A stretch of DNA of 64,000 nucleotides from a candidate division WOR-3 bacterium (GTDB lineage: Bacteria > Hydrothermota > Hydrothermia > LBFQ01): positions 245,613 through 309,612 of the forward strand of contig JBDRWW010000002.1 in NCBI GenBank assembly GCA_039802605.1, read 5' to 3'. Position numbers and translations under genes: made by a program. A model generated the notes under the pieces. The model worked only from the letters and a program-made list of their open reading frames with translations. It did no database searches and had not been told where the DNA came from. Of the stretch, positions 1 through 57,004 are shown piece by piece (within the stretch, counting starts at the first letter, position 1; each line of letters begins with the position of its first letter).

Positions 1-132
1 TATAATATCCGGGTGATGTCCGAGTCTTTCCGCCAAGATTCCCACCTTAACGACAAACGCCAAAGCCTCAATAAAATCCTTAAAAACAAACTCCCTTTCA
101 AGAAAATTTTCCCTCTCCAACCACATATTCAT
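1..132 (-). CDS. phhB: Pterin-4-alpha-carbinolamine dehydratase (5' part; runs off window start)
   Basis: Manual translation from ATG at 132 (ATGA overlap with the SCO stop): [44 protein letters not shown], with the F.F.DF..A..F and HHPDI motifs. Confidence 0.85.
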
Positions 133-869
133 TTCCTTATTAAAAAGATATAACCATAAACCGCGAGAATCATAAGGATGCTCAACACCCCAACCAGTTT
201 TACCAGCCTCCAAACAACAACCTCATACCTCTTGTTTGCAGAATCATATTCAAAGCAGTATAAGAGAAATTGATATACGAGCTTGTTTTCCCCTATATTT
301 CCCTTTGAAGCCTCTAAAAGGGATAACCTTACATCCATAGGGTTTATCTCACCCAGATCGTAAATAACTCCGGATGTTTTTCCGTCTGGGGTTAGCGTGA
401 ATATTGCAACCGGATGGGAATACAAGCCGTTTTTTAACATCTTGTATTTATATCCCAACTTTTGGGAGAGTTTTAGGATGTTTAAAGAATCCCCTACCGA
501 AAAAATGGCGGCATCTTTGAAGAAGAATTCATAAGTTTTAAACTTTTCAGAAGCATCCTTAACCGTATTTCTGTGGTTGAAGGAATATACGAGAACCCTG
601 TAATCCCTCCCCGGCTTCAAATCCTTTATCTTTGTCAAGGCCTCATATGTTTTTAAAAGCACAGTGGAGCATACTACGGGACAATCGTAATACATCGGCA
701 CGATTAAAACCGGCCTTTTACCATCAAAAATTTCGGCAATATTGAACCTCCTACCGTTTTGATCCGTAAGGAAAACATCATCCACTTTAACCCCACCTTT
801 AAAATCAACCCCCACGCCCTTAATATCGTTGGGAACATATGTACTAAATTCTGCGATAAAAATTATCAT
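129..869 (-). CDS. SCO family protein (cytochrome c oxidase Cu assembly)
   Basis: CPVVC (CxxxC) motif, downstream His (YSHP), C-terminal TM helix; lies in the cox operon. Confidence 0.85.
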
Positions 870-1177
870 CGCATACCAAAATACCCCGCCCTTGTTAGGA
901 CATCAATTATGGGTAATGCCAAGAGGATTAACAGAAGTAAAAGGGGTATTGTTATCATAAACCACAGCAGCTTACTCTCGTATTTTAAATGCATAAAGAA
1001 CAATGCCACCAATGACGCCTTTACGGATGCTATTGAAAGGGCTATTATGGTGTTCGTAATTTTACCCAAGTCTATCCCCGCCGCCCAAACGGTTATAAAG
1101 GTTAGAATGTAAAGGGCTATTGCAACCGCAAGATATACGGGCGGCGTAACTATGTGTTCCTTATGATTATCTTTCAT
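866..1177 (-). CDS. ctaF: Cytochrome c oxidase subunit IV
   Basis: Three TM helices, KASLVALFFMHLKYE motif; start moved to ATG 1177, which follows an AAGGAGGTGG SD. Confidence 0.85.
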   Translation of the reverse strand: MKDNHKEHIVTPPVYLAVAIALYILTFITVWAAGIDLGKITNTIIALSIASVKASLVALFFMHLKYESKLLWFMITIPLLLLLILLALPIIDVLTRAGYFGMR

Positions 1178-1188
1178 CCCCCACCTCC

Positions 1189-1827: not shown

Positions 1828-1838
1828 ACCTAACCTCC

Positions 1839-3437: not shown

Positions 3438-3449
3438 TTTTCACCTCCT

Positions 3450-4538
3450 TTATTTAAGCGTTTTTATAAACTCAACAATGTCCGAAATTTGTTCCTCGGT
3501 CAATTGCCCCTGAAATGAGGGCATAACCGCCTGATAACCCTTAACTATTTTAGCCTTGGGTTCAAGGATGGATTCCCTTATGTAATTCTCGTCGGCAACA
3601 ACCCTTTTTCCATCGGATAACTCCACATCACGGCCGAATAAACCCTTCCAAGTTGGACCTATACCCGGAGAACCATCAAAAGAATGGCAACTTACACAGA
3701 GTTTTTGTGATATTATTTTACCCCTTTCCGCCGGGGATAAAGAGGCTAAGAGTTTTTCCTGTGCCCCGGACCACTCGTTAAACTCCTCATCCGAAAGGCT
3801 TAATATGGCATAAACGGAGTCTAAGGGCATGTTTGCCAAAGTGTTGTTAAACCTGTCGGCGGGTATGGACTTAAACCTTTCAAACAGTTTTGGTGGCAAT
3901 GCAACCACCTTTGCCGGCATCCTTGAATGCCAAGCCCCACAATATTCCGTACAGAAAACCTCGTATTCCCCTGGTTTTTTTGCCTCAAACCATATCTTTG
4001 TGAACCTGCCGGGAATCGCATCGTATTTTGCCCTAAACTCTGGAACATAAAAACTGTGTATAACATCTTGCGAGGTAAGGATTAACCGTACGGGTTCCCC
4101 CGCGGGTACAAAAATTACGGGTTGAAAATCCTTAGGCGTTATACCCTTATCGTCTTTTATGGTTCCCGTAATAATCTTTTTACCATCGGGATATTCCGCA
4201 GTCCAACCCCATTGCCTTGCGGTTATTCTGATTTCAAGGGAAGGCTGGTTTTCCGGCCATTTAACTTTGGCATAAGCCTTATACCCGAACCAGAATATGA
4301 CAAAAAGTAGGATTGTGGGTATAACCGTCCATACTATTTCCAAAGTGGTATTATGGCTTATGGGTGCTCCCACTCCTTCATCTCCCGGACTTCTGCGATA
4401 CTTTATTATAAAAACCAAGAGCGCTATGTTTATTATTGCAAAGAATACAAACGATAGCCAGAAGGTAATCCAAAATGCGGTATCGGTATTTACGGCGTAT
4501 GTGGATGCCCTTTCCGGCAAAAGTGTAATTATCCACAT
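3450..4538 (-). CDS. ctaC: Cytochrome c oxidase subunit II with fused cytochrome c (caa3 type)
   Basis: DVIHSF and CuA motif CTEYCGAWHSRM; C-terminal CVSCH heme-binding motif. Confidence 0.95.
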   Translation of the reverse strand: MWIITLLPERASTYAVNTDTAFWITFWLSFVFFAIINIALLVFIIKYRRSPGDEGVGAPISHNTTLEIVWTVIPTILLFVIFWFGYKAYAKVKWPENQPSLEIRITARQWGWTAEYPDGKKIITGTIKDDKGITPKDFQPVIFVPAGEPVRLILTSQDVIHSFYVPEFRAKYDAIPGRFTKIWFEAKKPGEYEVFCTEYCGAWHSRMPAKVVALPPKLFERFKSIPADRFNNTLANMPLDSVYAILSLSDEEFNEWSGAQEKLLASLSPAERGKIISQKLCVSCHSFDGSPGIGPTWKGLFGRDVELSDGKRVVADENYIRESILEPKAKIVKGYQAVMPSFQGQLTEEQISDIVEFIKTLK

Positions 4539-4564
4539 AGACTTGATATTATAAAGTGGTAAAG

Positions 4565-4581
4565 TTGCAAATGCATTGCAT
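4565..4581. promoter_or_regulatory. Imperfect palindrome TTGCAAATGCATTGCAT upstream of the cox promoter (candidate operator)
   Basis: Resembles the perfect palindrome at 54977-54993; lies just upstream of TATAAT (4553-4548). Confidence 0.35.
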
Positions 4582-4582
4582 T

Positions 4583-5554
4583 TTAACCGAAGAAGTGTTT
4601 GGCGTTCAGAAACTCATCCACGCTAACGGTTTTTAATCTACCAACGCAGGCATGCATATCCAAAGTCATAACATCGTATCCGTTGTACGCGGTTATATAA
4701 CCGAATTTTTTGTTTTTTAAAAGCTCATAGGCGAAGTTCCCCATTGTGTGTGCCATAAGTCTATCATAGGCGGATGGGGATCCACCCCTTAAAACATAAC
4801 CTATTTCAACAAACCTGGTTTCCAAGTTTAATATACTTGCGAGCTTCCTCTGTATGTGTATTCCAACATTTTGAACCTTTTGGTCGGAATATCTAACACC
4901 TTCCGCAACCACAACTATACTAAAACTTCTCCCTATCTTCTTCCTATTTTCAATAACTTCCGCTATCTCATCAATTGTTAAAGGATATTCGGGAATAACT
5001 ATTACATCCGCACCTGCCGATATTCCGGAGTAAAGGGCTATCCATCCCGTATGCCTCCCCATAACCTGAACCACAAAAACCCTTTTGTGGGATTCCGCCG
5101 TGGAATGGAGTCTGTCTATAAGGTTTGTTGCGACATTAACGGCGGTATCAAACCCTATGCTTTCCGTTCCCCATATATCGTTATCTATGGTTTTCGGAAT
5201 AAACACAACCCTACCCCAAACCCTCTGAAAGTGGTTTGCAATGTGTAAAGAACCGTTTCCGCCTATAACGATTAAACCATCAATACCTTCAAGGTTTTCA
5301 AGGGCTTTGTTCAAAAAATCCCCATCATCCAAGGGGTTAAACCTTGATGTTCCGAGAATGGTACCCCCTTGATAAATTATCCCGCTAACGCTTTCCCTAT
5401 TCAAGTTTATAAAATCCCCAAATGTCACACCCTTCCAACCATCCCTAAAACCTATAACCTCATCCCCTTCGTTTATAGCCCTTCTAACGATAGCCCTTAT
5501 CGCCGCATTGAGTCCGGGACAATCCCCACCGGAGGTTAGAACCCCCAATCTCAT
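4583..5554 (-). CDS. pfkA: 6-phosphofructokinase (PfkA family)
   Basis: LTSGGDCPGLN, GGTILGTSR, PKTIDND, VMGRHTGWIA. Confidence 0.93.
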   Translation of the reverse strand: MRLGVLTSGGDCPGLNAAIRAIVRRAINEGDEVIGFRDGWKGVTFGDFINLNRESVSGIIYQGGTILGTSRFNPLDDGDFLNKALENLEGIDGLIVIGGNGSLHIANHFQRVWGRVVFIPKTIDNDIWGTESIGFDTAVNVATNLIDRLHSTAESHKRVFVVQVMGRHTGWIALYSGISAGADVIVIPEYPLTIDEIAEVIENRKKIGRSFSIVVVAEGVRYSDQKVQNVGIHIQRKLASILNLETRFVEIGYVLRGGSPSAYDRLMAHTMGNFAYELLKNKKFGYITAYNGYDVMTLDMHACVGRLKTVSVDEFLNAKHFFG

Positions 5555-6780
5555 AAATATATTTTAAAGTAAAATTCCTTTTTGGCCTCCTCAACGAGTT
5601 TTTGCAGTTCCCCATCCACCTTTTTGTTTATAACAAGGTTCCTTATTTCCTCATATGTGGGTTCTTTCCCCTCCTTCTTATCCAAAACCTTGAAGATGTT
5701 TATTGATAAACCGTCTGGGGATTCCACTGGGCCTATGATGTCTCCAACCTTTGCCTTTTTCAAATCCTTTAAAAGATCCGGGGGTAAAATCCTTTCATTT
5801 ACCCAACCTATTTCCCCGTTGTTTTCCCTTGTTGTTGGATCTTCGGAGTACTGTTTAACCAGTTTTGAGAAATCGTATCCCGACTTTGCCATATTAACTA
5901 TCCTTTCGGCCCTTTTCATAACGGTGTTTTTTGCGGATGAAGATGGTTTTACCCTTATGAGTATATGGGCCAAAAGGTACGCATCTTCTTGCTTTCCCAA
6001 AACCTTAAAGATATGATAACCCTGAGGCCCCCTCAAAGGTTTTGTTATACCCCCTTCGGGTGTTTTATCCAATTCTTGTATAAAATCGGGTGGAAAGGCG
6101 CTCTTGGGAACTATTCCTATGTTTCCACCGTTTTTGGCACTTTCCCTATCATCCGAGAACTTTTCCGCCAAATTTTCAAAACTCTCCCCTTTCCTGAGCA
6201 TATTATAAATGCCTTTTGCCTTCTCGTAGTATTTTTGTTCTTCCGAAGCGGAGGGTTTAACCTGTAAGGATATCACCGCAAGTTTATACTCGTCGGGTTC
6301 TTTTAAGGAGTCCTTGTAAATCTTGTAAAATTGCATAACCTCATCATCCCCGATTTTTATCTTGGGTTTAATTTTAAACTCCACATACTTTTGAACATAA
6401 AGGTTCCTTTCTATCATCTTCCTGTAATAATCCCTTAGATAATCCAATGTTAAACCGGCCTCTTTTAACCTCTCTTCAAACTCCTCCCTGCTCATCTTAC
6501 CCATAAGGGCCTTTATCTGCTGATCCAAAACGGAGTTTATCTCGTTATCGCTAACGCTTATGGTGGTATCCTCTTTGATTTTTAGGTATAACAACTCCAT
6601 ATTTACTAGTTCGTTCAGTACATTTTTGCGAAACTCGTTTAACCTATCCGGTGTTATACCCATGGCACCGCCGTATATTAGGGTTATCTCATCAACCTCC
6701 GACATCCAAAAGGCCCTATCCCCAACTACGGCAACGATTTTGTCAAGCGTATCAAGTTGGGATAATAACATCAAAATCAT
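5551..6780 (-). CDS. surA: SurA-like periplasmic chaperone/peptidyl-prolyl isomerase
   Basis: N-terminal LDKIVAVVG and two parvulin domains (FENLAEKFSDD..GG.IG; FSKLVKQYSED..GEIGW). Confidence 0.85.
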   Translation of the reverse strand: MILMLLSQLDTLDKIVAVVGDRAFWMSEVDEITLIYGGAMGITPDRLNEFRKNVLNELVNMELLYLKIKEDTTISVSDNEINSVLDQQIKALMGKMSREEFEERLKEAGLTLDYLRDYYRKMIERNLYVQKYVEFKIKPKIKIGDDEVMQFYKIYKDSLKEPDEYKLAVISLQVKPSASEEQKYYEKAKGIYNMLRKGESFENLAEKFSDDRESAKNGGNIGIVPKSAFPPDFIQELDKTPEGGITKPLRGPQGYHIFKVLGKQEDAYLLAHILIRVKPSSSAKNTVMKRAERIVNMAKSGYDFSKLVKQYSEDPTTRENNGEIGWVNERILPPDLLKDLKKAKVGDIIGPVESPDGLSINIFKVLDKKEGKEPTYEEIRNLVINKKVDGELQKLVEEAKKEFYFKIYL

Positions 6781-7634
6781 CTTTCACCCCCTTTGTACTT
6801 GTTTAAAAGAACCGTAAAAACGGAGTCTTCCACTTGTTTCCTTCTCTGCTCCAAAAGGAACTGATAAACCGTCCCTTTAATCTGCGGATCAAGGTCTTTT
6901 ATATTAACATTCCTTATATCCACAACCTTGGCGAGCACATAGGCATTGGGACCCATAGCAAATGGACCTATAACATCGTCTTTTTTGGCGTTTTTTAAGG
7001 CTTCAAACTCCTTTTCGGATAGTGCAAACCTGCCAAGGCCAACATTTTGATAACCCGATGGTTGAACGCCTATCTTTCCGCTTTTCGCAAACTCTTCAAG
7101 CATGAGGTTTGCGGCATAACTACCGTCTTTTAAGAGTTTCTTTAAAGTATCGGTTAGTTTAACATCGCCATACGCAACGGTTAGCATGGCTATTTCCTTT
7201 GAAAACTCGTCTTTGTGGTTGTTAATAAACCTAATAACTTCGGATGTATCAACATTTATTTTGGGTAGGATATATTTTCTATAAAAGGCATCTGCCACAA
7301 CACTCTTTTCCGCCCAATACCTAAGCCTTTTCACAACGCTATCCGTATCCAAACCGAGGTTTTTACCCTCATTGTAAAATAGTGCCAATTTTAAAAGTCC
7401 CTTTTCAACATCCTCTTGCGATTGACTTAAACCGGGTACAGACTGGGCTATATCAAGATCTAAACGCGTAATATAAACATCACCCACCTTTTTATAAACA
7501 TCCTCTTGGGTTTCTTCAACTCTTGCATTGGAAGTTTTACCCGTCTTTTGAAGGTATAACACCCCAAAAGCCCCCACAAAAACACCCAAAGCCAGTGAAA
7601 CCAAGGAAAATGCCGCCACCAAGTACTTGTTCAT
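6777..7634 (-). CDS. Membrane-anchored PpiC/parvulin-like protein
   Basis: N-terminal TM helix, degenerate parvulin-like C-terminus (DVIGPF); adjacent to surA. Confidence 0.55.
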   Translation of the reverse strand: MNKYLVAAFSLVSLALGVFVGAFGVLYLQKTGKTSNARVEETQEDVYKKVGDVYITRLDLDIAQSVPGLSQSQEDVEKGLLKLALFYNEGKNLGLDTDSVVKRLRYWAEKSVVADAFYRKYILPKINVDTSEVIRFINNHKDEFSKEIAMLTVAYGDVKLTDTLKKLLKDGSYAANLMLEEFAKSGKIGVQPSGYQNVGLGRFALSEKEFEALKNAKKDDVIGPFAMGPNAYVLAKVVDIRNVNIKDLDPQIKGTVYQFLLEQRRKQVEDSVFTVLLNKYKGGER

Positions 7635-11237: not shown

Positions 11238-12353
11238 CTATTTTATCCTAACTATACCCCCGATATAGGTTTGAAAACCGTATCTCGTATTATACACCAC
11301 AGCGGGTAAGTATCCGCCTAAAGAGGAAAATATTGGAACACCCAATCCTATGGAAATGCCCATAGTGGTATCAACACCCCCAAAATCCGTAAATACCGAA
11401 ATACCAAACCCGCCGCTTACAAACCTTCCGATTATATCCGGAAACTCTTTTGCCAAAACCTTCCTCATCTCAAAAGAAACCAAGTACCTTGTTTTTCCCA
11501 CCACCCTACGCTTGGGTATTCCCCCCCTTAAAGCGTCATCCGTACCCATGAAGTTGGGTAAAAGGTATAAGGGTGGATATCCGAAAAGGTGGGTATATCC
11601 TCCGAAAATCACAAATGTTAAATCGTTCAAAGATTTAAAACCCTCATAGTAAAACTCAAACTTCCTCGCAACAAAATTTCCAAAATACTCATAAATCCCG
11701 CTTTTTAAGGTATAACCCCTTTGGGGATATAAAATCCAATCACGGGTATCTTTAAAAACGATTACGGAATTTTCGGAAAAAATATCCTCTATACCAAAGC
11801 TATCACTCTTAACCGAAACCCCCCTTATTTTCAACTGCATACGAAGATTTTCGGATAATTTCGTGTTATATACACCCTCTACCCATGTCTTGTGAATGGG
11901 TATTTGGTATATAAGACTATAATACCCAGAGGAACCTATGCCAAAGCCTACTGAGTTTTTAAAAAAACGGTAATTCGGAGTGTTCCACATTATTTCCCAA
12001 CTCCTCCGGGCCCCCATCATAAAGTATCCCGATAGGTTTTCACCATTGCCCCGAAAGTTTGTATGAATAACACCCAAGCCCAAGCTCAAACCCACATCAA
12101 AACTGTAATCTATTACCGGATAAGGCCATATATACCAAAACTCTTTGAGGAAAATATAGACGGTATCGTTTATAAGATCTACCTTTACATCCCTAAAAAG
12201 TTGGGTTTCCTCTATTCTCTTTTTTATCAAATCAAGGGGAACATCATTAACGCATTTACATGTATCGGCACCTATGACCCTTAACACAAAAGATTCCTTG
12301 GTGCGGACATTTCCCAAAACTTCAACATAATACGCGAAAATAACGGTTATCAT
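11238..12353 (-). CDS. Omp85/BamA-TamA family outer membrane protein (single POTRA + beta-barrel)
   Basis: POTRA-like start (VLGNVRTKESFV...LFRDV), NFRGNGE barrel motif, LRG loop, aromatic alternating strands. Confidence 0.7.
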   Translation of the reverse strand: MITVIFAYYVEVLGNVRTKESFVLRVIGADTCKCVNDVPLDLIKKRIEETQLFRDVKVDLINDTVYIFLKEFWYIWPYPVIDYSFDVGLSLGLGVIHTNFRGNGENLSGYFMMGARRSWEIMWNTPNYRFFKNSVGFGIGSSGYYSLIYQIPIHKTWVEGVYNTKLSENLRMQLKIRGVSVKSDSFGIEDIFSENSVIVFKDTRDWILYPQRGYTLKSGIYEYFGNFVARKFEFYYEGFKSLNDLTFVIFGGYTHLFGYPPLYLLPNFMGTDDALRGGIPKRRVVGKTRYLVSFEMRKVLAKEFPDIIGRFVSGGFGISVFTDFGGVDTTMGISIGLGVPIFSSLGGYLPAVVYNTRYGFQTYIGGIVRIK

Positions 12354-14004: not shown

Positions 14005-15258
14005 TTACCTCCCCTTTTCCTTATCCAAAAACTCCCTTATACCTTCCGCGATCGCCTTTGCTATCCTTTTTTGATAGTCTTTACTTGCCAATTTTTCCAC
14101 CTCCTTTTTATTGGTTATAAAGCCAATTTCTATTAAAACCGATGGCATACCTACCCATTTTAAAACATAAAAACCCGCCTGTTTTAACCCCCTATCCTTT
14201 GACAGCTTATACTCAATGGCTTTTCCGTGTATATATCCGGCGAGTTTATAGGATTGTTCCAAAAGTAGGGTTTGTATTAAATCCCCGACAATTATTCCCA
14301 CCTCATCCGTAGGGTTCAGATTACCCAAATCGTATTTAACAGCCGAGTTTTCGAGCAAAGCCACCGCCCTTTCCTCGGATGTTCTGCTCTCGGATAAGAA
14401 ATATGTTTCCAATCCATCCGCCCCATTGTCTATACTGGCATTACAATGGATACTTACAAATAAATCCGCACCGCTTCTATTTGCAATCCTCGCCCTTTTT
14501 GATAGGGGTACATATTCATCCCCTTCACGGGTTAGTATAACCTTATACCCATAACCTTTTAGGATATTTGCCAGTTCCAAAGCGACGGCCAAGTTTATAT
14601 CCTTTTCCTTATAACCGTTGGCCACGGCTCCGGCATCCTTTCCCCCATGTCCCGGGTCTATAACGATTACGGGCAATCCCCCTGTTTTCAAAGTTTTTAT
14701 GGGATATATGGTAATGGTGATACCGTCATCCCCTTTATACACGGAAGATTTACCCGCCCCAAATCCCAAATGTATTATAAATTTCGTGTTTGTCTTCGTA
14801 TGCAATATATCAACTACGCTTACAAACTTTCCATCACCGAGTACCTTTCTGTATTTCCCGTAAAGCCCATTAACATTCACAACTATGCTATCTTCATATA
14901 AATTAACATCAAAATCCTTGCCCCCTTTTATGGTAATACGGTAAGTGGTATCAACTGCCCCCATAAGGAGATTCTTTATTGTGGGTTCTGCGATAAAAAG
15001 CCTTTCACCCTCTACATCCCAAAAAACATTTAACCCCATATTGAAAAGCACGGGGGCCAATTCATCACCCTTAAATCTGATCACATTTGAAGTATCAATA
15101 CTTAGGGGGAAAACCTTTTTGCCTATAAACGCCAATCCGCTATCCGTTATAATGGCAGAAGAACCTTTATAAACTATTCTGTTTTTTTCAACCCTTACGC
15201 CAAACCCCTTTAACTCCTCAATGCCAACCCAAACATCCGTCAAAACCATCAAAATCAT
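14005..15258 (-). CDS. N-acetylmuramoyl-L-alanine amidase (Amidase_3, AmiC-like)
   Basis: IDPGHGGKD, EK, FVSIHCN, PSVLIEIGF. Confidence 0.9.
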   Translation of the reverse strand: MILMVLTDVWVGIEELKGFGVRVEKNRIVYKGSSAIITDSGLAFIGKKVFPLSIDTSNVIRFKGDELAPVLFNMGLNVFWDVEGERLFIAEPTIKNLLMGAVDTTYRITIKGGKDFDVNLYEDSIVVNVNGLYGKYRKVLGDGKFVSVVDILHTKTNTKFIIHLGFGAGKSSVYKGDDGITITIYPIKTLKTGGLPVIVIDPGHGGKDAGAVANGYKEKDINLAVALELANILKGYGYKVILTREGDEYVPLSKRARIANRSGADLFVSIHCNASIDNGADGLETYFLSESRTSEERAVALLENSAVKYDLGNLNPTDEVGIIVGDLIQTLLLEQSYKLAGYIHGKAIEYKLSKDRGLKQAGFYVLKWVGMPSVLIEIGFITNKKEVEKLASKDYQKRIAKAIAEGIREFLDKEKGR

Positions 15259-20616: not shown

Positions 20617-20970
20617 TTACATGATTTCAACATCCGATAGTATTAGGGATTTATTCCCGGGTTTTACATTTATTATTGTGGGCTTTCTTCCAATACCCCG
20701 TGTTGGAAGCATTTCCGCATCTTCTATGCGGTTTATGTCAATCACTATTGTGTGTTTCCCGGGTTCGTATGTAAAGGTCTTCTCCCAGTACTCCCCATCC
20801 TTCCAGAACCTAACCTTTACGGTGAATTTACCCTCGGATTGGGCTGAAAACCTAAAAACCCTATAATCTGCGGGGATTTCTTTATAAACCTCTTCGTTTG
20901 CAACAAACATATTACCCCTGCCTTCAAGGGGTGCTCCGTTTAAAGAAATCCATCCTATTAACCAAAACAT
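20617..20970 (-). CDS. Hypothetical secreted beta-rich protein
   Basis: 117 aa ORF tightly packed in the operon; short hydrophobic N-terminus. Confidence 0.6.
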   Translation of the reverse strand: MFWLIGWISLNGAPLEGRGNMFVANEEVYKEIPADYRVFRFSAQSEGKFTVKVRFWKDGEYWEKTFTYEPGKHTIVIDINRIEDAEMLPTRGIGRKPTIINVKPGNKSLILSDVEIM

Positions 20971-20973: not shown

Positions 20974-22296
20974 TCACCTCCTTATAACCTTATAAACCCT
21001 ATTCCCGCGCTTAACCATATAAACCCCCTTTGGAAGATTGCTAATATCTTTACCAACCAGCCTACCCTCAACATTATAAACCTCGGCTTCTTCTCCTTTT
21101 ACACTAAGATTTTCCGAAACCTTTAAATATGGTATTGGGGCGTAGGCAAACCATATATGCCAGTAGTTCCTACCTCCGGAGACTATCCTATTATCCGACC
21201 AAACCACATAAACATTGTTGCCATCCGCCCAAGCGTCTATGTAGTGCCCCGGCCAACAGTCGTTTGTGTAATCAACACCGCTAACGCCACCGCATCCGCT
21301 CCTATCGACAAATGGAAAATATGTATCCGAAACCCTTATTGGAGAAGACCAAGAGTTGCCGCCATCGGTTGAGTATGAGTAGTACAAGCCCCATAAACCG
21401 GTTCCCGCACTGTTATCGTACCAAAATGCGTGCAAACCTCCATAAGGATCTGCCGCCAGAGCGGGCATATATTCCGCAACGGAAGGGGGATTTGATGTTA
21501 TCCTTACGGGGGATGACCAGGTTGCGCCTCCGTTTGTTGATTTAACGAACTCAACCTTCAAGTTGCTCAAAGAACCCGCCATATAGATTATACCTATGTT
21601 TCCCTTACCCCACCCAACGGGTTGATAACCAGCGGGATAGGGGTTTGGGGCTATATCGGGGGTCATACACGCGGCATTTGTTGGGGAAGACCATGTGGCA
21701 CCGTTTGTGCTCCTTGAAACATAGAGGTATATGCAAGAACCGCTTGATCTCCACCAAACGGCATAAAACAGGGAGTCGTCGGATGCCGCCATGGGAACAC
21801 CCCCGGTTGAATAAACCGCAGCCCTGCTCCAAGTGGCACCGTTATTATAAGAGTAAGCGGAATAAATCGTAGAAGATGTGCAATAGTTGGAGTAAATTAT
21901 AACCGCTGTATCGTTCCTTACGGCTATCCAGGGGTGATCCGTTGATGAGCAGTTTCCGGCATTTATGGCGGAGCTCCAAGTTAGGCCTCCATCCGTGGAA
22001 CGCATATAATATGTGTAATAATTACCCAACCAAACGAGATGAACGGTATTACCCCAAATCCTAACAACGGGGTCGCAACAGGCCGGTCCGGGATCGCCGA
22101 AGTGTGCCCCCCATGTTAGTCCTCCATCGTGCGTTATGGAGAAGGCGTTTTCTCCCGTTATATCCATATCTATCCACCCCGAACCGCCGAGGCTATACAT
22201 AACCGCACCCGAAACCTCGGCATGGCTTGTGTTATCGGGGTAATCATCCACGCGCACATTGACAAAAGGGTAATCGTTTAAAATTATTAAGAACAT
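20974..22296 (-). CDS. BNR/Asp-box beta-propeller (sialidase-like) secreted protein with T9SS-type C-terminal domain
   Basis: Six Asp-boxes (THDGGLTW, STDGGLTW, SYNNGATW, STNGATW, STNGGATW, STDGGNSW); C-terminal VYNVEGRLV...LPKGVYMVK; start at ATG 22296, 7 nt after TATAAT. Confidence 0.8.
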   Translation of the reverse strand: MFLIILNDYPFVNVRVDDYPDNTSHAEVSGAVMYSLGGSGWIDMDITGENAFSITHDGGLTWGAHFGDPGPACCDPVVRIWGNTVHLVWLGNYYTYYMRSTDGGLTWSSAINAGNCSSTDHPWIAVRNDTAVIIYSNYCTSSTIYSAYSYNNGATWSRAAVYSTGGVPMAASDDSLFYAVWWRSSGSCIYLYVSRSTNGATWSSPTNAACMTPDIAPNPYPAGYQPVGWGKGNIGIIYMAGSLSNLKVEFVKSTNGGATWSSPVRITSNPPSVAEYMPALAADPYGGLHAFWYDNSAGTGLWGLYYSYSTDGGNSWSSPIRVSDTYFPFVDRSGCGGVSGVDYTNDCWPGHYIDAWADGNNVYVVWSDNRIVSGGRNYWHIWFAYAPIPYLKVSENLSVKGEEAEVYNVEGRLVGKDISNLPKGVYMVKRGNRVYKVIRR

Positions 22297-22349
22297 ATTG
22301 GGTATTATAAGGCTGAGAAACAAAACTCTGGCAACCTTAAAATAGCGGT

Positions 22350-23456
22350 TTGAAACGATGGGCGTTTTTGATAATTTTTCTTGGATGTTCTGCAAATTTT
22401 AACACCTTGGAGGGGCCCGAAAACCAAAGGGATATAAGGGTGGAATTTAAAGACATTGTGGTGAAAAAGGGCGATGTTTTTGGAGAAATTGTCAATAATT
22501 TGGATTTCCTACCACAAAAGGGCGAAATTGTAAAGTGGTTCTCCGATAGCGTAAGGATTTTAAACATATACGACACGATAAGGTTTGTTTTCATAAACGA
22601 CACCCTAAGCAGGTTGGAAATAAGGAAGTTAAAGGGAATATACGAGTATGACTTTTCTACGGGCAGCGGGCGGTTTATAAAAAGGTTTAAGGAATACATT
22701 CCAAAAACCGTCCAATTGGTTATAAATACGAGTTTGTGGGATGCTTTCCTAAACGAAAACCTACCCCTGGAATTGTTTGTTGAGATTACCGATATATTCG
22801 CTTGGGATATTGACTTCTCATCCGAAACCCAAAGCGGTGATACTTTGAGGATGGTTTATTCGGATGCGGGAATAGTGTATTATGCCGAGTATATAGGGAA
22901 AACAACGGGTAGAAGGGTGGCCGTTAGGTTTAGGGGGGAGTATTACGACGATAAGGGCAACAATATACGCAGGATGTTCTTAAAATCACCATTAAAATCC
23001 TATGTTATAACATCCGGTTTTGGCATAAGATTTCACCCCATTTTGAGGGAATACAGGCCCCATCATGGCGTTGATTACGCCGCACCTTATGGTTCTCCGG
23101 TTCATACCGTGGCAAGCGGTAGGGTTGTGTTTGCCGGTTGGAAGGGCGGGTATGGTAAGACGGTTATAATAAAACATACAAATGGATATCAAACCCTTTA
23201 CGGCCACCTGTCAAGGATATATGTCAAAACCGGGCAAGTCGTGGAGCAAGGGGATGTAATAGGTGCCGTGGGTTCAACTGGGCTATCAACAGGCCCACAT
23301 CTACATTTTGAAATAAGACAACACGGGAAACTCATGAACCCCCTACGGATAAAATCCGAGCCTTTAAAACCCCTTCCGGAAGAATTAAAACCCGAGTTCT
23401 TTGCCCTATTGAGGGAATACCAAGATATGATAAATGGCTACATCGTATCAAGATAA
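22350..23456 (+). CDS. M23 family metallopeptidase (MepM-like), lipoprotein
   Basis: HHGVDYAA, YGHLS, STGPHLHFE; lipobox-like FLGC. Confidence 0.9.
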   Translation: MKRWAFLIIFLGCSANFNTLEGPENQRDIRVEFKDIVVKKGDVFGEIVNNLDFLPQKGEIVKWFSDSVRILNIYDTIRFVFINDTLSRLEIRKLKGIYEYDFSTGSGRFIKRFKEYIPKTVQLVINTSLWDAFLNENLPLELFVEITDIFAWDIDFSSETQSGDTLRMVYSDAGIVYYAEYIGKTTGRRVAVRFRGEYYDDKGNNIRRMFLKSPLKSYVITSGFGIRFHPILREYRPHHGVDYAAPYGSPVHTVASGRVVFAGWKGGYGKTVIIKHTNGYQTLYGHLSRIYVKTGQVVEQGDVIGAVGSTGLSTGPHLHFEIRQHGKLMNPLRIKSEPLKPLPEELKPEFFALLREYQDMINGYIVSR

Positions 23457-24024: not shown

Positions 24025-24052
24025 TCTCTTCCGGCTTTAAAATATCCAAACT

Positions 24053-42495: not shown

Positions 42496-43284
42496 TTGGA
42501 TATGAAAAGGTCGTATTTACCCCAAAAGGTTGAGGAAATGCTGGAAAAATTGGGTGATGGCGAAAAGGAGATATTATTACTATCCTCTTACATTACCCCT
42601 ATAATAATTTTGCCTGTGCTTGGGATTATTTGGGGATGCTCGGGTTCGGAAAAGGTAGAACTGTCAAAGGAGGGAAAACTCGTAGAAAAGATGGCGGAAG
42701 CCACATACGAGGTTATAAACTCGTGGGAACAACTCCTTAAAACGATGGAGATGAGTACCGTTTGGGATTTGGGGTATGGTTTAAAGGATATGATAGAATA
42801 CCAGATTAAAAACGGCGGTTCGGGAGAAAAGTTATTTAAGGAACTTTCGGATAGCACAACACCCATAGGCTCAACTTATAGGATGGCCGTTGATAATATG
42901 GCTCGGGGGTTTTTGGCAAGCGATGTTTTTACGGAGGAATATATGAAAAACTTTTTCTATTGCTCGTGGTCAAGGTTTTACGGCAATGAGGTTATGGATT
43001 CCTTGCGGAAATGGAGTAATAATAACAGGTATGAGGCCATATCGTTGGTTTTTAAGGGTTTGAAGAATTACATTCAATATGTAATCGCCAATGGGGACTC
43101 GTTGGCTTACGATAAAGCGGAAAGCGCCTTGCTTGCAACGGGTTGTTTGTTAGTTCATATTGATAAAAGAGGCTTGGATTATAATATATTTGACCATTAT
43201 GCAAAACTCGTGCTCGTAATTCCTATGTCTAACGAAGCCTTAAAATTAGCCGCCAAAAAATTAAAAGAAGGGGGTGAAAAATGA
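42496..43284 (+). CDS. Hypothetical protein, possible lipoprotein
   Basis: Hydrophobic stretch ending IIWGC; 262 aa ORF; true start uncertain. Confidence 0.6.
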   Translation: MDMKRSYLPQKVEEMLEKLGDGEKEILLLSSYITPIIILPVLGIIWGCSGSEKVELSKEGKLVEKMAEATYEVINSWEQLLKTMEMSTVWDLGYGLKDMIEYQIKNGGSGEKLFKELSDSTTPIGSTYRMAVDNMARGFLASDVFTEEYMKNFFYCSWSRFYGNEVMDSLRKWSNNNRYEAISLVFKGLKNYIQYVIANGDSLAYDKAESALLATGCLLVHIDKRGLDYNIFDHYAKLVLVIPMSNEALKLAAKKLKEGGEK

Positions 43285-43816
43285 TTTGGGTTTTGGGTAT
43301 AGTTTTTGAAAAGGATATAAAGGTTGGAAATGCCCTTAATGATACCACGACAATCCTCGGAAAATGTTTTTCGTCTTGGTCGCTCTCAAAGGATGGGGGT
43401 TTTAGAATGTCTTTAATGGGTGATGATTATTTACCGGGAGTTAGGGATATTCTAAGGATACCATAAAGGCGGTTTTGGGAATAAGGTGGGCTTTTTGCAT
43501 AGTTAGAAAAAAAATACATTTTCTGCAAAACAAGTATGACTGGTTTAATGCTTATCCGGGAACGGAGTTAAAAACCTGTGCAGAAATGGTTTCGGATTAT
43601 TTTAGGAAAAACTACCCTGATGTTTTTGGTTCAAAGATATACGATATTCATAAGGCGAGGATGACAATCTTTAACGATGTTTATGATTATATAAAGAGAA
43701 ACAAGGACAGCCTTTGGCTTGACGGATACCAAAATTTGGCCGTTGTGGTGGCACTTTACGAGGCCTTTTATCTATATATTGAGGAATATAAAGAATTACC
43801 GGGAGGTGGGAAATGA
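43281..43816 (+). pseudogene. Frameshifted hypothetical secreted protein
   Basis: ORF 43281-43466 and frame-shifted ORF 43475-43816 (open from 43445); SD and ATGA coupling only at the outer ends. Confidence 0.55.
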
Positions 43817-44231
43817 TTTTATTGTTTGCATTTGCAGACCCCGAATGCCTTTACGATGATTATACAAACAATCCGAAAATGGAAGGTATTAGGGCAACTT
43901 TGGTTAAGCATTTAAAGGAAAGGGGTACGGATGCCGTTCCGGAACTTATGGATTATACGATGAAAAGACTTTCGGAATATAACCCCACAAACTGGTTAAA
44001 GGTATGTGGAATATACCTCTGGATGGAAATAGTTTTCAGGTATCCCGATAGGATATTAAACGGTTCTCCGGACGACAATTATTCCGATTTAATAGATTCC
44101 GCAAGGGTAATATTTTAAGCCCCCAAGAGGTCGCTATGGATATATTTGCCACATCCTCATTTTTAAGGGTTTTAATGGATATTGGGGTTAATGAGTTTAG
44201 AATGGAATACACCTGCGGTTATTGGTAGGGT
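43813..44231 (+). pseudogene. Hypothetical secreted protein, probably frameshifted near 44115
   Basis: ORF 43813-44118; one extra T in ATATTTTAAG would continue it as LSPQEVAMDIFATSS...GYW*. Confidence 0.45.
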
Positions 44232-48499: not shown

Positions 48500-48939
48500 T
48501 TATAGAGGCTTATGCCGGCAACAGCCGGAGAAATACGGGTTAGCGGAAATCCCGTACCTCCCAAGAAAATATTGAGAAAATCCCAACGCCGATCCCCCGA
48601 CCATACGCATTTTACCGTTATACCAAGGTCTTGAACTTATCCAGTTTGCCACATCAAGCCCGTCGTGTAAGGGACCCCAACCATCTGACATAAACGACAA
48701 CCTTATACCCGTACTTCCCCAATAACCCCTAAAAGTACTAACAACATATGCATAACCCAAAGAGGTTATAATGGGTATATACGAGGAACTTAACCCCAAA
48801 GTGTCGTAATTACGGGTAATGGAAGGGTATCCGGGCCGGATACGGCACTATCGGGCAACCATACATAAACCTTTAATGTTTCACCATCAACGGCCAAAAC
48901 ATTAGCGTTAAAGTGTATTACGCTTAGAACCCATACCAT
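48500..48939 (-). pseudogene. CocE/NonD (S15) hydrolase pseudogene fragment
   Basis: ATG 48939 gives ..DGETLKVYVWLP..PVI then a stop; another frame gives GYAYVV..FRG..GS.G, DG.DV.NWI..RPW.NGK...GGSALG; truncated before the catalytic Asp/His. Confidence 0.75.
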
Positions 48940-49271: not shown

Positions 49272-49319
49272 AATGCAGGGATTATAAAGGTGATTTGTAA
49301 ACACCCTTAAAATTCCAAT

Positions 49320-50534
49320 ATGTTTTTGGCAATAACATCTTATATCCTAATTCCTATGGATGAAACCCAAACAGACCATTTAAGGGCCTATGGGGTTGTT
49401 TATTGGGTTATATCAAGGGGAGTTGAGATTGAGTGGCTTTTGAATTTTAGGGGGGGTTCATTTCTGATATACTCAAATTCTCCCGAGATAAAGAAAAGGT
49501 TGGTTGATAAAGGGGTGTATTACGAAAGTATTGGGGAAAGCGATAAATTGGAAATTGATGGGATAATTGAAAGGAGTAATATGTCAAAGGTTAAACTCCT
49601 GAGCCTTCCAAAATTGGCCGTTTATGCGCCAAAGTACGCGGAGCCTTGGGATGATGCGGTTAGGATGGCTTTGGATTATGCGGAAATACCATACGATCTA
49701 ATATGGGATGAGGAAATTTTGCAGGGGAAATTAAAAAATTATGATTGGGTTCATTTGCATCACGAGGACTTTACGGGGATGTTTGGAAAATTCTGGGCTG
49801 GATACTCCCATGCGGATTGGTATATAAATATGGTTAAAACATCCGAAGCGATTGCTAAAAAATACGGTTTCAAAAGCGTTAAGGAGGAAAAGTTGGCCGT
49901 TGCGAAAAAAATAAAGGAATTCGTTTCAAACGGAGGTTATCTGTTTGCCATGTGTTCTGCACCGATAACATTGGATTTGGCCTTGGCATCAGAAGGGGTT
50001 GATATACTTGATGTACCGTTTGATGGAACACCACCAGACCCAGACTATCAGCAAAAGTTGGATTTTTCAAAAACGCTTTTCTTGAAAAGTGCAAATATTA
50101 TAGCCAACCCTTACATATACGAACATTCGGATGCGGATGCCACAAAGGACATAGCGGCATTGGGGCCAAACTCTTACTTTTACCTTTACGAGTTTTCGGC
50201 AAAGGTTGATGAAATTCCCACAATGCTAACGCAAAACCATACGAGGGCTATAAGGGAGTTTTTGGGACAGGATTCGGGGATTTATAGGGACAAGTTGAAG
50301 GAAAATGTCATCGTTCTTGCGGAAAATACAAGGGTCCAAGCGGCAAAGTATATATTCTCGCAATACGGAAAGGGGTTTTTCAGTTTCTACTTTGGGCATG
50401 ACCCGGAGGATTACCAGCATTTCGTCGGAGAACCCCCAACGGACCTAAGCAAACACAAAAACTCCCCCGGTTATAGGATAATCTTAAACAACATTTTCTT
50501 ACCATCCGCCCAGAAGAAGAAGCTCAAAACATAA
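49320..50534 (+). CDS. Conserved FCB-type protein (class I GATase-like fold; often labelled asparagine synthetase B)
   Basis: LIPMDE, HLRAYG, WDDAV, HLHHEDFTG, FAMCSA, GHDPEDYQH, SPGYR. Confidence 0.7.
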   Translation: MFLAITSYILIPMDETQTDHLRAYGVVYWVISRGVEIEWLLNFRGGSFLIYSNSPEIKKRLVDKGVYYESIGESDKLEIDGIIERSNMSKVKLLSLPKLAVYAPKYAEPWDDAVRMALDYAEIPYDLIWDEEILQGKLKNYDWVHLHHEDFTGMFGKFWAGYSHADWYINMVKTSEAIAKKYGFKSVKEEKLAVAKKIKEFVSNGGYLFAMCSAPITLDLALASEGVDILDVPFDGTPPDPDYQQKLDFSKTLFLKSANIIANPYIYEHSDADATKDIAALGPNSYFYLYEFSAKVDEIPTMLTQNHTRAIREFLGQDSGIYRDKLKENVIVLAENTRVQAAKYIFSQYGKGFFSFYFGHDPEDYQHFVGEPPTDLSKHKNSPGYRIILNNIFLPSAQKKKLKT

Positions 50535-50587
50535 GTTTATCACCCTTATAATACCCGCAAAATTATGTAGGGGGATAAAAGGGTTAA

Positions 50588-52886: not shown

Positions 52887-52889
52887 AAA

Positions 52890-53906: not shown

Positions 53907-55000
53907 AGGTAGGTATAATATCGTACTTTTTCCCACCGAACAATTCCTCGGGGGCACAAAGGTGGTCAAAGCTCGCGGAATATCTGAAAGATAAGGGTGT
54001 TGATGTGTTTGTTATTTCTTCAATAGGGGATAGGTTTGGTGGTGAGGATTATGAGAGGTTTGGGCTTTTGAAAAGGGTTATAAGGATATATCCCCTGAGG
54101 TATTCCCAACCTTACAGGTTTCCCGTGCACGGAAAATTAAACCTTTTAAAGTTCTTTATAGTTCTGGATAGCAGGGTTTTGTTCTTCGTAAAGTATTACA
54201 GAGAAATTTCTGCCATTTTGAAAAGGGAAATGCCGGATGTTGTAATAATTTCCGTTCCTCCCTTCTCGTCGGTTTTAACGGTTCGCACATTGCTAAAACT
54301 TAAAATCCCCTATATAGTGGATTTAAGGGATGTTTGGTTTTATGATCCAAGAAGGCCTAACAAATTGGCGGATTTTACAATTGAAATGTGGGCTTTAAAA
54401 AATGCGAGGGGTGTTTTTTGCATAAACGACTATTCCTTAAAGGAGGTGAAAATGTTCAACAAAAACGCCTTTTTGATACCGCATTTTTACAACCCGAAAG
54501 AGTATGAGGTTGAACCCATTAACCATTCAGACATATGGGTTTCCCATATAGGCAGCCTTTTTAACGAGAGGGATATAAATCCCCTTATAAATGCCCTTAG
54601 GGATATGGGTTTAACTTTAAGGTTGGTGGGTCCGGGTTCGGAAAGGTTTGGTGGGTTGGGACCCGTTGAAAGGCGCGTGGCTATAAGGGAAATGGTTTCC
54701 GCGGATATATTGGTTGCCATATTCGGAGAAGGTGAAGATCAGAAATACGTTTCATCCGTAAAACTGTTTGAATATTTGGGTGCGAAAAAGCCTATAATAG
54801 TTATATCTCCAAAGGGATATATCAAAAGGGTTGCGGAAGAATTGGGCTTGGGCATATGTAAGAATTCGGAAGATGATATCAAAAGGTGTATAGGAGAGGC
54901 TTTAAAGGGGAAGTACAAACCCAAAAATTCCGACAAATATACCCTTGAAAGGGTTGGGGATGAAATTCTGACCTTATTGCAAATGATTTGCAAAACCTGA
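53903..55000 (+). CDS. GT4 glycosyltransferase
   Basis: YFFPP..SGAQR, DLRDVW, KLFEYL...KPI. Confidence 0.82.
   Translation: MKVGIISYFFPPNNSSGAQRWSKLAEYLKDKGVDVFVISSIGDRFGGEDYERFGLLKRVIRIYPLRYSQPYRFPVHGKLNLLKFFIVLDSRVLFFVKYYREISAILKREMPDVVIISVPPFSSVLTVRTLLKLKIPYIVDLRDVWFYDPRRPNKLADFTIEMWALKNARGVFCINDYSLKEVKMFNKNAFLIPHFYNPKEYEVEPINHSDIWVSHIGSLFNERDINPLINALRDMGLTLRLVGPGSERFGGLGPVERRVAIREMVSADILVAIFGEGEDQKYVSSVKLFEYLGAKKPIIVISPKGYIKRVAEELGLGICKNSEDDIKRCIGEALKGKYKPKNSDKYTLERVGDEILTLLQMICKT
54977..54993. promoter_or_regulatory. Perfect 8-1-8 palindrome TTGCAAATGATTTGCAA (Fur/Mur-like operator candidate)
   Basis: About 45 nt upstream of the FTR1 iron permease start. Confidence 0.55.
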
Positions 55001-55036
55001 CCTTTTTGGTAAGGATTACAATCCGAGAATTATCGG

Positions 55037-57004
55037 TTGATTATGCTTTGGCTATTTGTAGGAATATCAACGGAAAGGGCTATAAGCATTTTGGATTATA
55101 TTGCAAGGGATTATAGGGATGTTGTTTCAAATGGTGAGGTTGTGGATACCACCGAGTGGGAAGAGATAACGGGTTTTGCAAAGGAGTTAAAGGGTGCGGG
55201 TTATACATTTGCGGATACGCTCTTAAAGCTTATGGAAAGAAAAGTTCCTTACGACTCCTTGGTTTCATATATAAAATCCGTAAAAACCTCATTGGGAACG
55301 AGGTTAAAGGTATCCCCGCCAATTCCAGACCTTTTGAGGGGTAAGCAGTTGTATATAAAACATTGCTCCTCTTGCCACGGGGAGGATGGCAGATCAAATA
55401 CGCCATTGGCTCAAAATATGGATCCAAAACCGAGGATACTTTATAAAAACGAGGATTTAAGCCTTATAGGGGTTTTTCAGGTTATAACTTATGGGGTTGA
55501 GGGGACGCCTATGCCGTCCTTTTCAAATTTGAGCGAAAAGGAAAGATGGGATATAGCCTTTTATGTGATGTCTTTGGGTAGAAAAAGTGGTGATATGGTT
55601 TTCCCCCTAAGCATATCGGATATGGTTATGCTTAGCGATGCGGAACTCTATGAAAAAATGAAATCCTTAGGAATTGAAAACCCGGAAGATTATATAAACG
55701 CTTTGAGGACAAGACCCGATTTATACCTATCCCAAAAGCCAAAGGACAAGTTGTTAAAATACCTAAACTTGGCCCTTGTGCTTACAAAAGGTGGAAATTT
55801 TGATAAGGCCAAGGAGGTATTACTTGATGCGTATTTTGAAGGTTTTGAACCCTTGGAAGGTATATTAAGTCCGCAAAAGGTTAAGGAGGTAGAATTAAAA
55901 TTCAATAACATCAGGGAAATGCTTGATAAAGGGGATTTTAGGGCATACGATGAAATATTATCGCTAAAAGAGGAGGTTTTAAAACTCAACGGTTTTAACC
56001 CCTGGTTTGCCTTTATAGGTTCCTTTGGAATCATTTTCAGGGAGGGTTTGGAGGCAATACTTATAATTGCTGCCATCTTGGCCGTTTTATACTCATTGGG
56101 ATATAGAAGGGAAGGTGTATATGTCCATATTGGTTGGATTTCCGCAATACTCATAGGTGTTATACTCTGGGTTGTTGCCCAAGTGGCCGTTAAAATATCG
56201 GGAGCCAGTAGGGAATTGGTTGAAGGTATATCCGCACTTTTGGCCTCCGTTGTCTTATTCCAAGTGGGGCATTGGATGTTGGCAAATTCGGATGCACAAA
56301 AATGGAAGAATTATATAAAGTCATCGGTTAAAAAGAGTTTGCAAAAAACCCAAACCTTTGGTTTGTTTGCGCTTTCCTTTATAGCGACTTTTAGGGAGGT
56401 TTTTGAGACGATTTTGTTCTATCAGGCCTTGTATATGCAAACGGGTGAAAGGTTGGCGCTTGTAGGGGGTTTTGTTTTGGGAGTGATTTCCCTAGTCCTC
56501 ATCGCCTGGAGTATCTTCTTTTTGAAAAAGAGGCTTCCCCTCTCGCAATTCTTTGCGATAAGCGGGGGTTTGCTTTTGATCCTATCCTTCACATTGGTGG
56601 GTAAGGGTGTAAAGGCATTCCAGGAAGCGACACTGTTACCTATAACCCATATACCTTGGATGCCTTCTTTCGAACTTTTGGGGATTTATCCCACGGTTGA
56701 AACTATAACCGCCCAATTCCTTATAATACTCGGGATTTCATTGGTGTTCTCGATTAAACTTTATCAGGAAAACACCCGCAGAAAGGAAATACTCAACAGG
56801 GTTTTTGAATTGGAGAGGGAGATAAGGGATATATCCGCATCCATTGAGAACATAAGGTGTAGCATAGGGACATGTATATTGGAAAGCCAAATGGACAAGG
56901 TTAGGGAGGCTTTGAGGGGTATGGAGAGGGAACTGGTTAGCATTGAGGAAAAACTAACCACATTTGAGGAGGTTATACAGGGTTATAATTCCCACCATGT
57001 TTGA
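55037..57004 (+). CDS. Cytochrome c / FTR1 family iron permease
   Basis: [18 protein letters not shown] and REVFE (RExxE) motifs. Confidence 0.9.

Follow-up and report, generated by a model that had tools for sequence, protein, structure and literature searches.

Very short uncharged N-termini on proteins of exported families in a WOR-3 bacterium: candidate minimal Sec signals in a class in which the signal recognition particle was not detected

The DNA described here, called the window throughout, is a 64,000-nucleotide stretch (contig C2, positions 245613-309612) of the genome of a candidate division WOR-3 bacterium (G000; 1.65 Mb in 23 contigs, 41% GC, completeness 90%), and our subject is a set of its genes whose products belong to exported families and yet start with only a few hydrophobic residues and no Lys or Arg. 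Thirteen such N-terminal peptides had been picked out by a sequence-only reading of the window; every one of them sits at its coordinates, and the ATGA overlaps at 869, 6780, 12353 and 15258 agree with the coordinates of the open reading frames (ORFs) and with the DNA (Table 1). The family names proposed at the same time held for the most part. Pfam returned SCO1 (marginal), COX2, SurA/rotamase, Amidase_3, BNR and FTR1 with cytochrome c, and NCBIfam returned Por_Secre_tail, the C-terminal tail of type IX secretion system (T9SS) cargo, whereas the label Omp85 was matched at a low score by NCBIfam only, the proteins at 20970, 43281 and 43813 have no family, and the presumed CocE remnant is a fragment.

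Table 1. Genes of the window treated in the text, with their N-termini, family evidence and the basis of each start (nt, nucleotides; TM1, first transmembrane segment).
Coordinates	Strand	Product	N-terminus	Family evidence	Start basis
5551-6780	-	SurA-like chaperone	MILMLLSQ, codons 1-8 (6757-6780)	Pfam rotamase and SurA_N	GGGGGTGA before ATG; in-frame TGA 2 codons upstream; ATGA overlap with upstream gene
14005-15258	-	N-acetylmuramoyl-L-alanine amidase	MILMVLTD	Amidase_3, 203 bits	TATATT 8 nt before ATG
24053-25879	+	Type IX secretion cargo protein	MVGIILSAVQ	TIGR04183, 23.2 bits (cut-off 23); PF18962 genome match	TAAAAT (24038-24043) 9 nt before ATG; stop 4 codons upstream
49320-50534	+	Conserved exported protein, family unassigned	MFLAITS(Y)		TAAAAT 7 nt before ATG; stop 3 codons upstream
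20974-22296	-	BNR-repeat protein, weak T9SS tail	MFLIILND	Pfam BNR_2 and BNR	TATAAT 7 nt before ATG 22296; upstream frame open for 34 codons; alternative TTG 22395
11238-12353	-	Possible small Omp85-like protein	MITVIFAY	Pfam none; NCBIfam Omp85_fam only 19.7 bits	ATGA overlap; stop 5 codons upstream; G005 orthologue starts MFSLFISY
129-869	-	SCO1/SenC-like protein	MIIFIAE	SCO1-SenC, 23.3 bits (cut-off 22.8)	ATGA overlap; TGA 12 codons upstream
3450-4538	-	Cytochrome oxidase subunit II (CtaC) with cytochrome c	Tail MWIITLLPERAS before TM1	Pfam COX2, COX2_TM, Cytochrom_C	TATAAT (4547-4552) 9 nt before ATG
55037-57004	+	FTR1 iron permease with N-terminal cytochrome c domain	IMLWLFV	Pfam FTR1 and Cytochrom_C	Candidates TTG 55037 or ATG 55043; stop 9 codons upstream of IMLWLFV
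20617-20970	-	117-aa protein, no known family (Pfam, NCBIfam)	MFWLIGWIS		AGGAGGTGA before ATG; TGA 2 codons upstream
43281-43466	+	61-codon candidate ORF	MIWVLGIV	Pfam none	GGGGGTGA before ATG; stop 1 codon upstream
43813-44118	+	101-aa ORF	MILLFAFAD	No family (Pfam, NCBIfam)	GGGAGGTGG before ATG
48792-48939	-	49-codon fragment (CocE remnant)	MVWVLSVI	No Pfam match	Frame ends after 49 codons
22350-23456	+	M23 peptidase lipoprotein	(TTG)KRWAFLIIFLG-C13	Peptidase_M23, 132 bits	TTG start, MKRWAFLIIFLGC
25911-26735	+	DUF4249-like lipoprotein	MKRFLVLVFFIT-C13	Pfam	Start MKRFLVLVFFITC
57819-58586	-	Periplasmic binding protein lipoprotein	Cys13	Peripla_BP_2, 78.7 bits	

The starts were read directly from the DNA. 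Several had been described as pinned by overlaps or by -10 boxes, and this is borne out by in-frame stops 1-34 codons upstream together with Shine-Dalgarno (SD) sites or -10 boxes, the BNR start being ambiguous. An in-frame stop lies within 9 codons upstream in 8/13 cases, and since TAA, TAG and TGA are all present close upstream, a recoded stop cannot lengthen the proteins, which rules out stop-codon recoding. A frameshift from an MKK-type start in a second upstream frame was considered as well, and three-frame translations of 70 upstream regions gave nothing consistent. A strong SD site of the GGAGGTGA type precedes the SurA gene and those at 20970, 43281 and 43813, and a -10 box ends 7-9 nt before the ATG of the CtaC, amidase, BNR, T9SS cargo and 49320 genes and of the remnant.

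Were the start codons misassigned, upstream, unusual or recoded starts would give these proteins normal signals, and in two cases, the BNR gene of the window and the T9SS gene C3:130203, an upstream TTG would indeed give a long basic one. We nevertheless consider this explanation very improbable: most of the frames are closed 1-11 codons upstream, by stops of all three kinds, strong SD sites or -10 boxes keep a fixed distance, the same short frames recur in relatives at 30-57% GC, and normal signals, read with an identical code, are present both in the sister lineages and on the lipoproteins of G000.

In the BNR gene, translation from the TTG at 22395 would place a long canonical-looking signal with basic residues, RYFKVARVLFLSLIIPN, before MFLIILND; the orthologue in G021, one of the relatives introduced below, begins with MFLLIILSQ, its frame being closed by a stop 8 codons before the start. 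The TATAAT box of this gene lies inside the codons CTT ATA ATA (Leu-Ile-Ile) of the still-open longer signal (window 22294-22395). This arrangement suggests that Ile/Leu codons of old h-regions (hydrophobic cores) may turn into promoters that start transcripts within the signal, and the BNR gene may be a frozen intermediate of signal shortening. Eight runs of RNA data were found, and the contigs of two contig-only runs overlap the window in part; one RNA contig ends at 22292, 4 nt inside the ATG at 22296, contigs being of a kind that cannot show transcript ends. A metatranscriptome contig (run X1) is also 27 bases shorter than the window at ~20991, towards the 3' end of the BNR gene; an indel of 9 codons between strains is the probable cause.

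The -10 boxes are a property of the whole genome. Among 810 SD-less first ATGs, the distance from the end of the motif TANNNT to the ATG is 8 nt in 160 cases and 9 nt in 129, against ~10-35 for each of the other spacings. A -10 box stands 5-10 nt upstream in 633 genes, at 7-9 nt in 481 of them; the sequences TAAAAT, TATAAT and TAGAAT account for 384/633, CCT usually precedes the box, and the -35 element is weak (27 genes with at least 5/6 matches, compared with 8 at the wrong spacing). Judged by the position of the box and the missing SD site, ~40% of the genes of G000 are probably expressed from leaderless mRNAs. The same arrangement is present in G005 and G013 and much rarer in G020, G021, G030, G105 and G121 (see Table 2 for these genomes).

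Short hydrophobic starts are somewhat commoner on genes with a -10 box (83/601) than on genes with an SD site (54/734), as they might be if composition or leaderless translation, for instance through U-rich 5' ends, had produced the pattern on proteins that stay in the cytoplasm. We find this extremely hard to credit, even more so than misassigned starts: the trait holds at 30%, 41% and 57% GC, it is found on SD-led genes such as SurA, its carriers are periplasmic, outer-membrane and T9SS families, and most leaderless genes lack such a start.

To count these starts genome-wide, genes and starts were called with a home-made program, and proteins of at least 100 residues were retained. A short leader was defined as Met plus an uncharged run, mostly of L, I, V, F, M and W, ending within 12 residues, and internal Met served as the control. 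By this pattern, short leaders are found on 132/1442 proteins of G000 (9.2%, an approximate and probably low figure) and after 2.9% of internal Met. One short leader that the caller overlooked belongs to a TonB-receptor-like protein starting MIYLLAYY.

Residue enrichments were measured against 186 internal look-alikes. Trp occupies position 3 in 36/132 short leaders, compared with 7/186 look-alikes and 59/1442 of all proteins, Trp making up 1.3% of the proteome; in the window, Trp at residue 3 is listed for 4538 (MWI), 20970 (MFW), 43281 (MIW) and 48939 (MVW). Gln ends the run in 34/132 short leaders and in 5/186 look-alikes. Typical leaders are MIWVIFAQ, MMWIIAVD, MLLLISQ and MVLIVSQ, and they resemble the C-terminal third of canonical signals in the same genome, such as MKRLYLIPVLICLWVWGLFAQ. 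Residues 2-6 are free of K, R, D, E and H in all 132, as the definition of the class demands. Counting Met, the uncharged run is 6, 7, 8, 9, 10 or 11 residues long in 21, 26, 29, 24, 14 and 12 cases, respectively, which is at or below the usual lower limit, textbooks giving the hydrophobic core roughly 7-15 residues. The 10 residues that follow the leader contain K+R at 0.116 and D+E at 0.151, against 0.160 and 0.149 in non-exported proteins, a weak effect of which we make no use.

The proteins that carry short leaders belong to exported families. We took 26 short-leader proteins of contig C1, none crossing a locus border, and compared them with Pfam (E <=1e-5). A family was assigned to 15/26, of which 11 are periplasmic, outer-membrane or secreted: SodC (Cu/Zn superoxide dismutase), PCuAC, OEP, two S8 subtilases, a BamB-like and a BamD-like protein, BNR/sortilin, CarboxypepD_reg, LVIVD, and Big_5 with a T9SS tail. 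Three others are ambiguous (TPR, VWA, Peptidase_S15) and one is an inner-membrane family (Wzy_C), leaving cytoplasmic housekeeping families at 0/15. As a control, 26 random C1 proteins lacking a hydrophobic start (at the different cut-off of E <=1e-12) gave 22 with a family, 19 of them cytoplasmic, e.g. tRNA synthetases, GyrB and UvrA; the three exceptions are two mis-started genes and the overlooked TonB-receptor-like protein. The T9SS cargo gives a second view of the carriers. G000 has 19 ORFs with Por_Secre_tail (PF18962), of which 14 start with short uncharged leaders (three of them from TTG or otherwise unsupported starts), two (C3:130203 and the BNR gene of the window) can be read in either a short or a long form, two have canonical basic signals and one is unclassified.

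We then compared orthologues, in which the replacement of a canonical signal by a short leader can be seen directly. SurA is present in 31/31 genomes of the class, and 20 of its loci were read. In f1, the family of G000 itself, which comprises two genera, all 12 loci have 8-9 uncharged residues ending in Gln with a GGAGG-type site upstream; the leaders include MILMLLSQ, MFLSFVMQ, MFFLLISQ, MMLLLLSQ, MIILLAAQ, MLLMLVAQ, MLLILTVQ and MFVLFLTAQ, are uncharged throughout, and are preceded by a stop 1-2 codons upstream in 11/12 loci and 8 codons upstream in the remaining one. The sequence of the leader thus varies among SurA orthologues while its hydrophobicity is conserved, and the start of the mature protein, LDTLDRI(V/A)AVV, is kept. 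Both SurA loci of family f5 have 10-residue uncharged leaders, MTWFLALLSQ and MSWLMMLFAQ. In the other families of the class, all six loci read have canonical signals of 17-23 residues that end in AQ, SQ or GQ at the aligned place, e.g. MKKAIFLMFLAVLPLLGQ, and the short form is therefore the derived one. The alignment indicates that the n-region, the charged start, was lost together with the front half of the h-region. The next gene upstream of surA (6777-7634) is itself weakly rotamase-like, with a normal MNK start and a 25-residue hydrophobic anchor, MNKYLVAAFSLVSLALGVFVGAFGVLYLQK, an example of how long anchors behind a basic start persist beside short leaders.

Other genes behave alike. 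The orthologues of the 49320 protein (59% identity) start with a canonical signal, MKRIFGVFGLLGAVALAWSQ, in G030, with MIIIILSF in G013 and with MNFLFYAFFSYY in G020. The amidase starts short and uncharged in families f1, f2, f4 and f8, the f1 orthologues beginning MIFMVLTD, MISLLLAG, MLLLLLSQ and MLALVLSQ, and several orthologue pairs of G000 and G020 show the same pattern of replacement.

The distribution of the trait was measured by passing samples of other genomes through the same pipeline (Table 2). Overall, these counts show that the short-leader trait is strong in one order (f1 and f2), intermediate in f5 and absent further away in the phylum, where canonical signals are found on 15-17% of proteins (G121 and G105), and that it is independent of base composition over 30-57% GC. 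The frequent Trp3 is particular to f1, Trp at residue 2 or 3 being found in 0/20, 0/13 and 1/23 short leaders in the samples of G013, G021 and G020, respectively. Both canonical and short leaders of the class are commonly followed by Gln (...FAQ, ...LSQ, ...LGQ; G020, G021, G023-G030 and G000).

Table 2. Frequency of the short-leader pattern at protein starts and at internal Met, and detection of signal recognition particle (SRP) parts, in genome samples of the phylum.
Genome	Family	Sample	SRP parts	Short leader	Internal Met
G000	f1	whole genome	not found	9.2%	2.9%
G005	f1, other genus, 57% GC	200 kb	not found	13.6%	1.5%
G013	f2, same order as f1, 30% GC	200 kb	not found	12.0%	1.2%
G021	f5	200 kb	not found	8.6%	2.7%
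G020	f4	800 kb	not found	3.6%	2.0%
G030	f8	88 kb	not found	1.9%	0.5%
G121	f14	200 kb	found	2.5%	2.8%
G105	f17	200 kb	found	1.2%	1.9%

Lipoproteins do not follow this pattern. Their signals in the window had been described as minimal and uniform, and the Cys at residue 13 is indeed common to all three, the G005 orthologue of the M23 peptidase lipoprotein starting (TTG)RKWLILGLSVLGC. The description was overstated for the genome as a whole, in which a basic start is retained by the 36 lipobox candidates (MKR in 14), with the Cys anywhere at residues 13-25, so that the three of the window mark the short end of the range. These sequences thus have the features of signal peptidase II substrates (basic n-region, hydrophobic core and lipobox Cys), with LspA present, and the comparison indicates that the n-region is lost only in the signal peptidase I class.

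The inventory of the export machinery of G000 includes LepB (one copy), SecY, SecA, YidC, LspA, Def and Fmt, SecA being established as to presence only. Loss of Fmt, which might have left Met1 charged, was ruled out as a cause, Fmt and Def both being present. The sequence-only reading had coupled minimal export signals to an adapted SecA or signal peptidase; the comparison of orthologues supports the signals, no adaptation was seen in LepB or SecY, and the unusual part of the machinery, which that reading did not foresee, is instead an SRP that we could not detect.

The Ffh M domain (PF02978) was found in 0/31 genomes of the class, compared with 14/14 control genomes. The SRP54 GTPase domain (PF00448), which should catch both Ffh and FtsY, gave a best match of 28.5 bits, to a partial P-loop, against 14/14 controls; the matches inspected are RadA (the best; G000:C1:111437-112738), a MeaB/ArgK-like GTPase and an ExeA-like ATPase. 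SRP RNA (RF00169) was not found in G000 in searches that both recovered it from 12/14 control genomes, and the SRP GTPase motifs DTAGR, TKxDG and DxxRxAA are missing from the six-frame translation of G000. Searching G000 by tblastn with Ffh proteins of the phylum gave nothing (best E 0.096), and a hidden Markov model made from two of these proteins gave nothing in G000 or in 800 kb of G020, while it found FtsY in the G121 sample at 3.5e-41.

In a sample of the phylum, PF02978 was found in 80/151 genomes, strong PF00448 matches in 95/151, mostly two per genome, and RF00169 in 80/141. SRP parts occur in nearly all genomes of families f13-f17, f19-f21, f23 and f28-f36, whereas PF02978 and PF00448 were found in 0/40 genomes of f1-f5 and f7-f12, with RF00169 at zero too; all three are also at zero in f24, f25 and f27. 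Since completeness is put at 100% for five members of the class, we read the missing Ffh, FtsY and SRP RNA as a probable clade-wide loss. Note that the apparent absence of SRP is wider than the short-leader trait, and can thus at most have made the trait possible.

How such leaders might work can be outlined as follows. An ancestral signal of 17-23 residues, made of a basic start, a hydrophobic core, a small residue and Gln, would have been trimmed from its N-terminus, leaving Met plus 5-9 uncharged and very hydrophobic residues, frequently with Trp3 in f1, and the old cleavage region, in which S, A or G is followed by Q, D, E, N or P. Without SRP, SecA alone would deliver the nascent chain to SecYEG, where a hydrophobic stretch of 5-8 residues would have to open SecY at its lateral gate, perhaps with help from Met1, whose amino group, once deformylated, would be the only possible positive charge, and in f1 from Trp3 as a possible interface anchor. 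LepB would then cut at the boundary between the small residue and Gln, its binding groove taking up the entire leader, which would be no longer than the stretch bound by a signal peptidase I groove. Lipoproteins, which need to be anchored in the membrane for processing by Lgt and LspA, keep their basic MKR.

The proteins could also be exported with the short N-terminus providing none of the signal, or only a part: it might be a remnant, possibly left uncleaved, being too short to tether the protein to the membrane, with targeting entrusted to mature domains or to a new post-SRP route. This is an unlikely explanation, yet one to be taken seriously, given that the leaders are far shorter than the functional Sec signals described, that SRP is undetected while LepB and SecY look unadapted, and that a small residue at -1 is present in under half of the short leaders. 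It accounts poorly for a hydrophobicity that is kept while the leader sequence drifts, which argues for selection on the leader itself, and for the enrichment of Trp3 and of the Gln boundary, the latter aligning with the cleavage region of the canonical orthologues.

Several observations weigh against taking the leaders as signals in their own right. For efficient export, a positive n-region and a minimal length of the h-region are needed, according to two reviews (PMC5875014; PMC9360617); a run of 5-8 residues is below this textbook minimum, which makes export on these leaders surprising. The polar break follows S, A, G or T in ~61/132 short leaders, with no uniform -1 rule evident. LepB is an ordinary one-helix signal peptidase I that retains its Ser and Lys regions. 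An adaptation of SecY was looked for in 30 aligned sequences: six columns separate f1 and f2 from f3, f4 and f6-f9, there is no plug deletion, and the only column uniform in f1 and f2 is a conservative Leu in place of Val, Ala or Ile, so that relatedness alone could explain these columns. On the side of the counts, several genes were mis-started by the caller, 11/26 of the C1 short-leader proteins are without a family, and the control set was held to the stricter Pfam threshold. From two raw metatranscriptome runs, 0 reads matched the window at 90% likeness, which says nothing either way. Finally, four of the 13 examples first proposed, CtaC, 43281, 43813 and the remnant, are weak. The N-terminus of CtaC is equally short in all 16 relatives inspected and precedes TM1, and may be a translocated N-tail rather than a signal; as regards the remnant, an intact Peptidase_S15 paralogue elsewhere in G000 starts MLWIVLPT.

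With these points taken into account, we think it rather probable, on the sequence comparisons, that the leaders are real, lineage-specific, minimal signal peptides of the Sec/signal peptidase I class in one order of the WOR-3 (Caldipriscus-like) phylum. The broader proposition, that a free-living thermophilic order exports most of its periplasmic, outer-membrane and T9SS proteins by uncharged leaders of 7-10 residues in a class devoid of SRP, appears to us evenly poised.

If minimal signals are indeed in use in a class without SRP, Sec translocation and signal peptidase I processing would run on signals well below the accepted minimum, and SecA and YidC alone would suffice, in a normal diderm cell, to target membrane proteins as well as secreted ones. 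Every secretome predictor, and much of secretion engineering, builds on the rules of signal peptides (a basic n-region and a hydrophobic core of minimal length); predictors would miss uncharged leaders of 7-10 residues, and the secretomes of these hot-spring bacteria would consequently be badly underestimated. The lineage would let one see in nature how little is required of a Sec signal. Ffh, FtsY and SRP RNA are usually counted among the universal genes, and their absence, if confirmed on closed genomes, would raise the question of how inner-membrane proteins are targeted. We found no published account of such short bacterial Sec signals or of the absence of SRP in WOR-3, subscription journals lying outside the search. 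A cultured member of the phylum, strain sy37, exists (PMC12285271), so that the reading may be testable.

Set beside known systems, the leaders share several features with canonical Sec/signal peptidase I signals (PMC5875014; PMC9360617). They are N-terminal on exported families, their hydrophobic core leads up to a polar break that in many cases follows a small residue, the genome encodes SecA, SecY and LepB, and orthologues carry ordinary signals at the same place. The leaders differ in having no Lys or Arg, a total length of ~7-10 residues against 17-23 in the sister lineages, a run of 5-8 residues and a frequent Trp3. The transcripts on which many of them would be made recall Deinococcus deserti, whose genome is rich in leaderless mRNA (PMC4007540): in both, a -10 box stands at a fixed short distance from the ATG, here in ~40% of genes. 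Beside D. deserti, the box of G000, known here from sequence alone, features the CCT extension upstream and the weak -35 element.

A second likeness concerns the residue after the cut. Under the Q-rule, Gln exposed by cleavage becomes pyroglutamate, a rule described as Bacteroidetes-specific in PMC5837995 (see also PMC10653852). The present case resembles it in the Gln that follows the run in 34/132 short leaders, in the Gln that ends many canonical signals of the relatives and in the presence of type IX secretion. It departs from the Q-rule in that the host is a WOR-3 bacterium and not a member of the Bacteroidetes, that Glu_cyclase_2 (PF05096) was not found in G000, the M28-type cyclase lying outside that search, and that the leaders are under half as long. 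At ~80 °C, an exposed Gln would cyclise readily without an enzyme.

A functional parallel to export on so slight a signal lies in Escherichia coli, where prl suppressors in SecY or SecE export signal-defective or even signal-less preproteins, and where targeting signals are also present in mature domains. Such strains have in common with the present case that Sec is able to move proteins with crippled signals when the channel opens easily. No prl-like change was recognised in the SecY of this lineage, and while prl strains are laboratory mutants, the short leaders are the wild-type state of an order.

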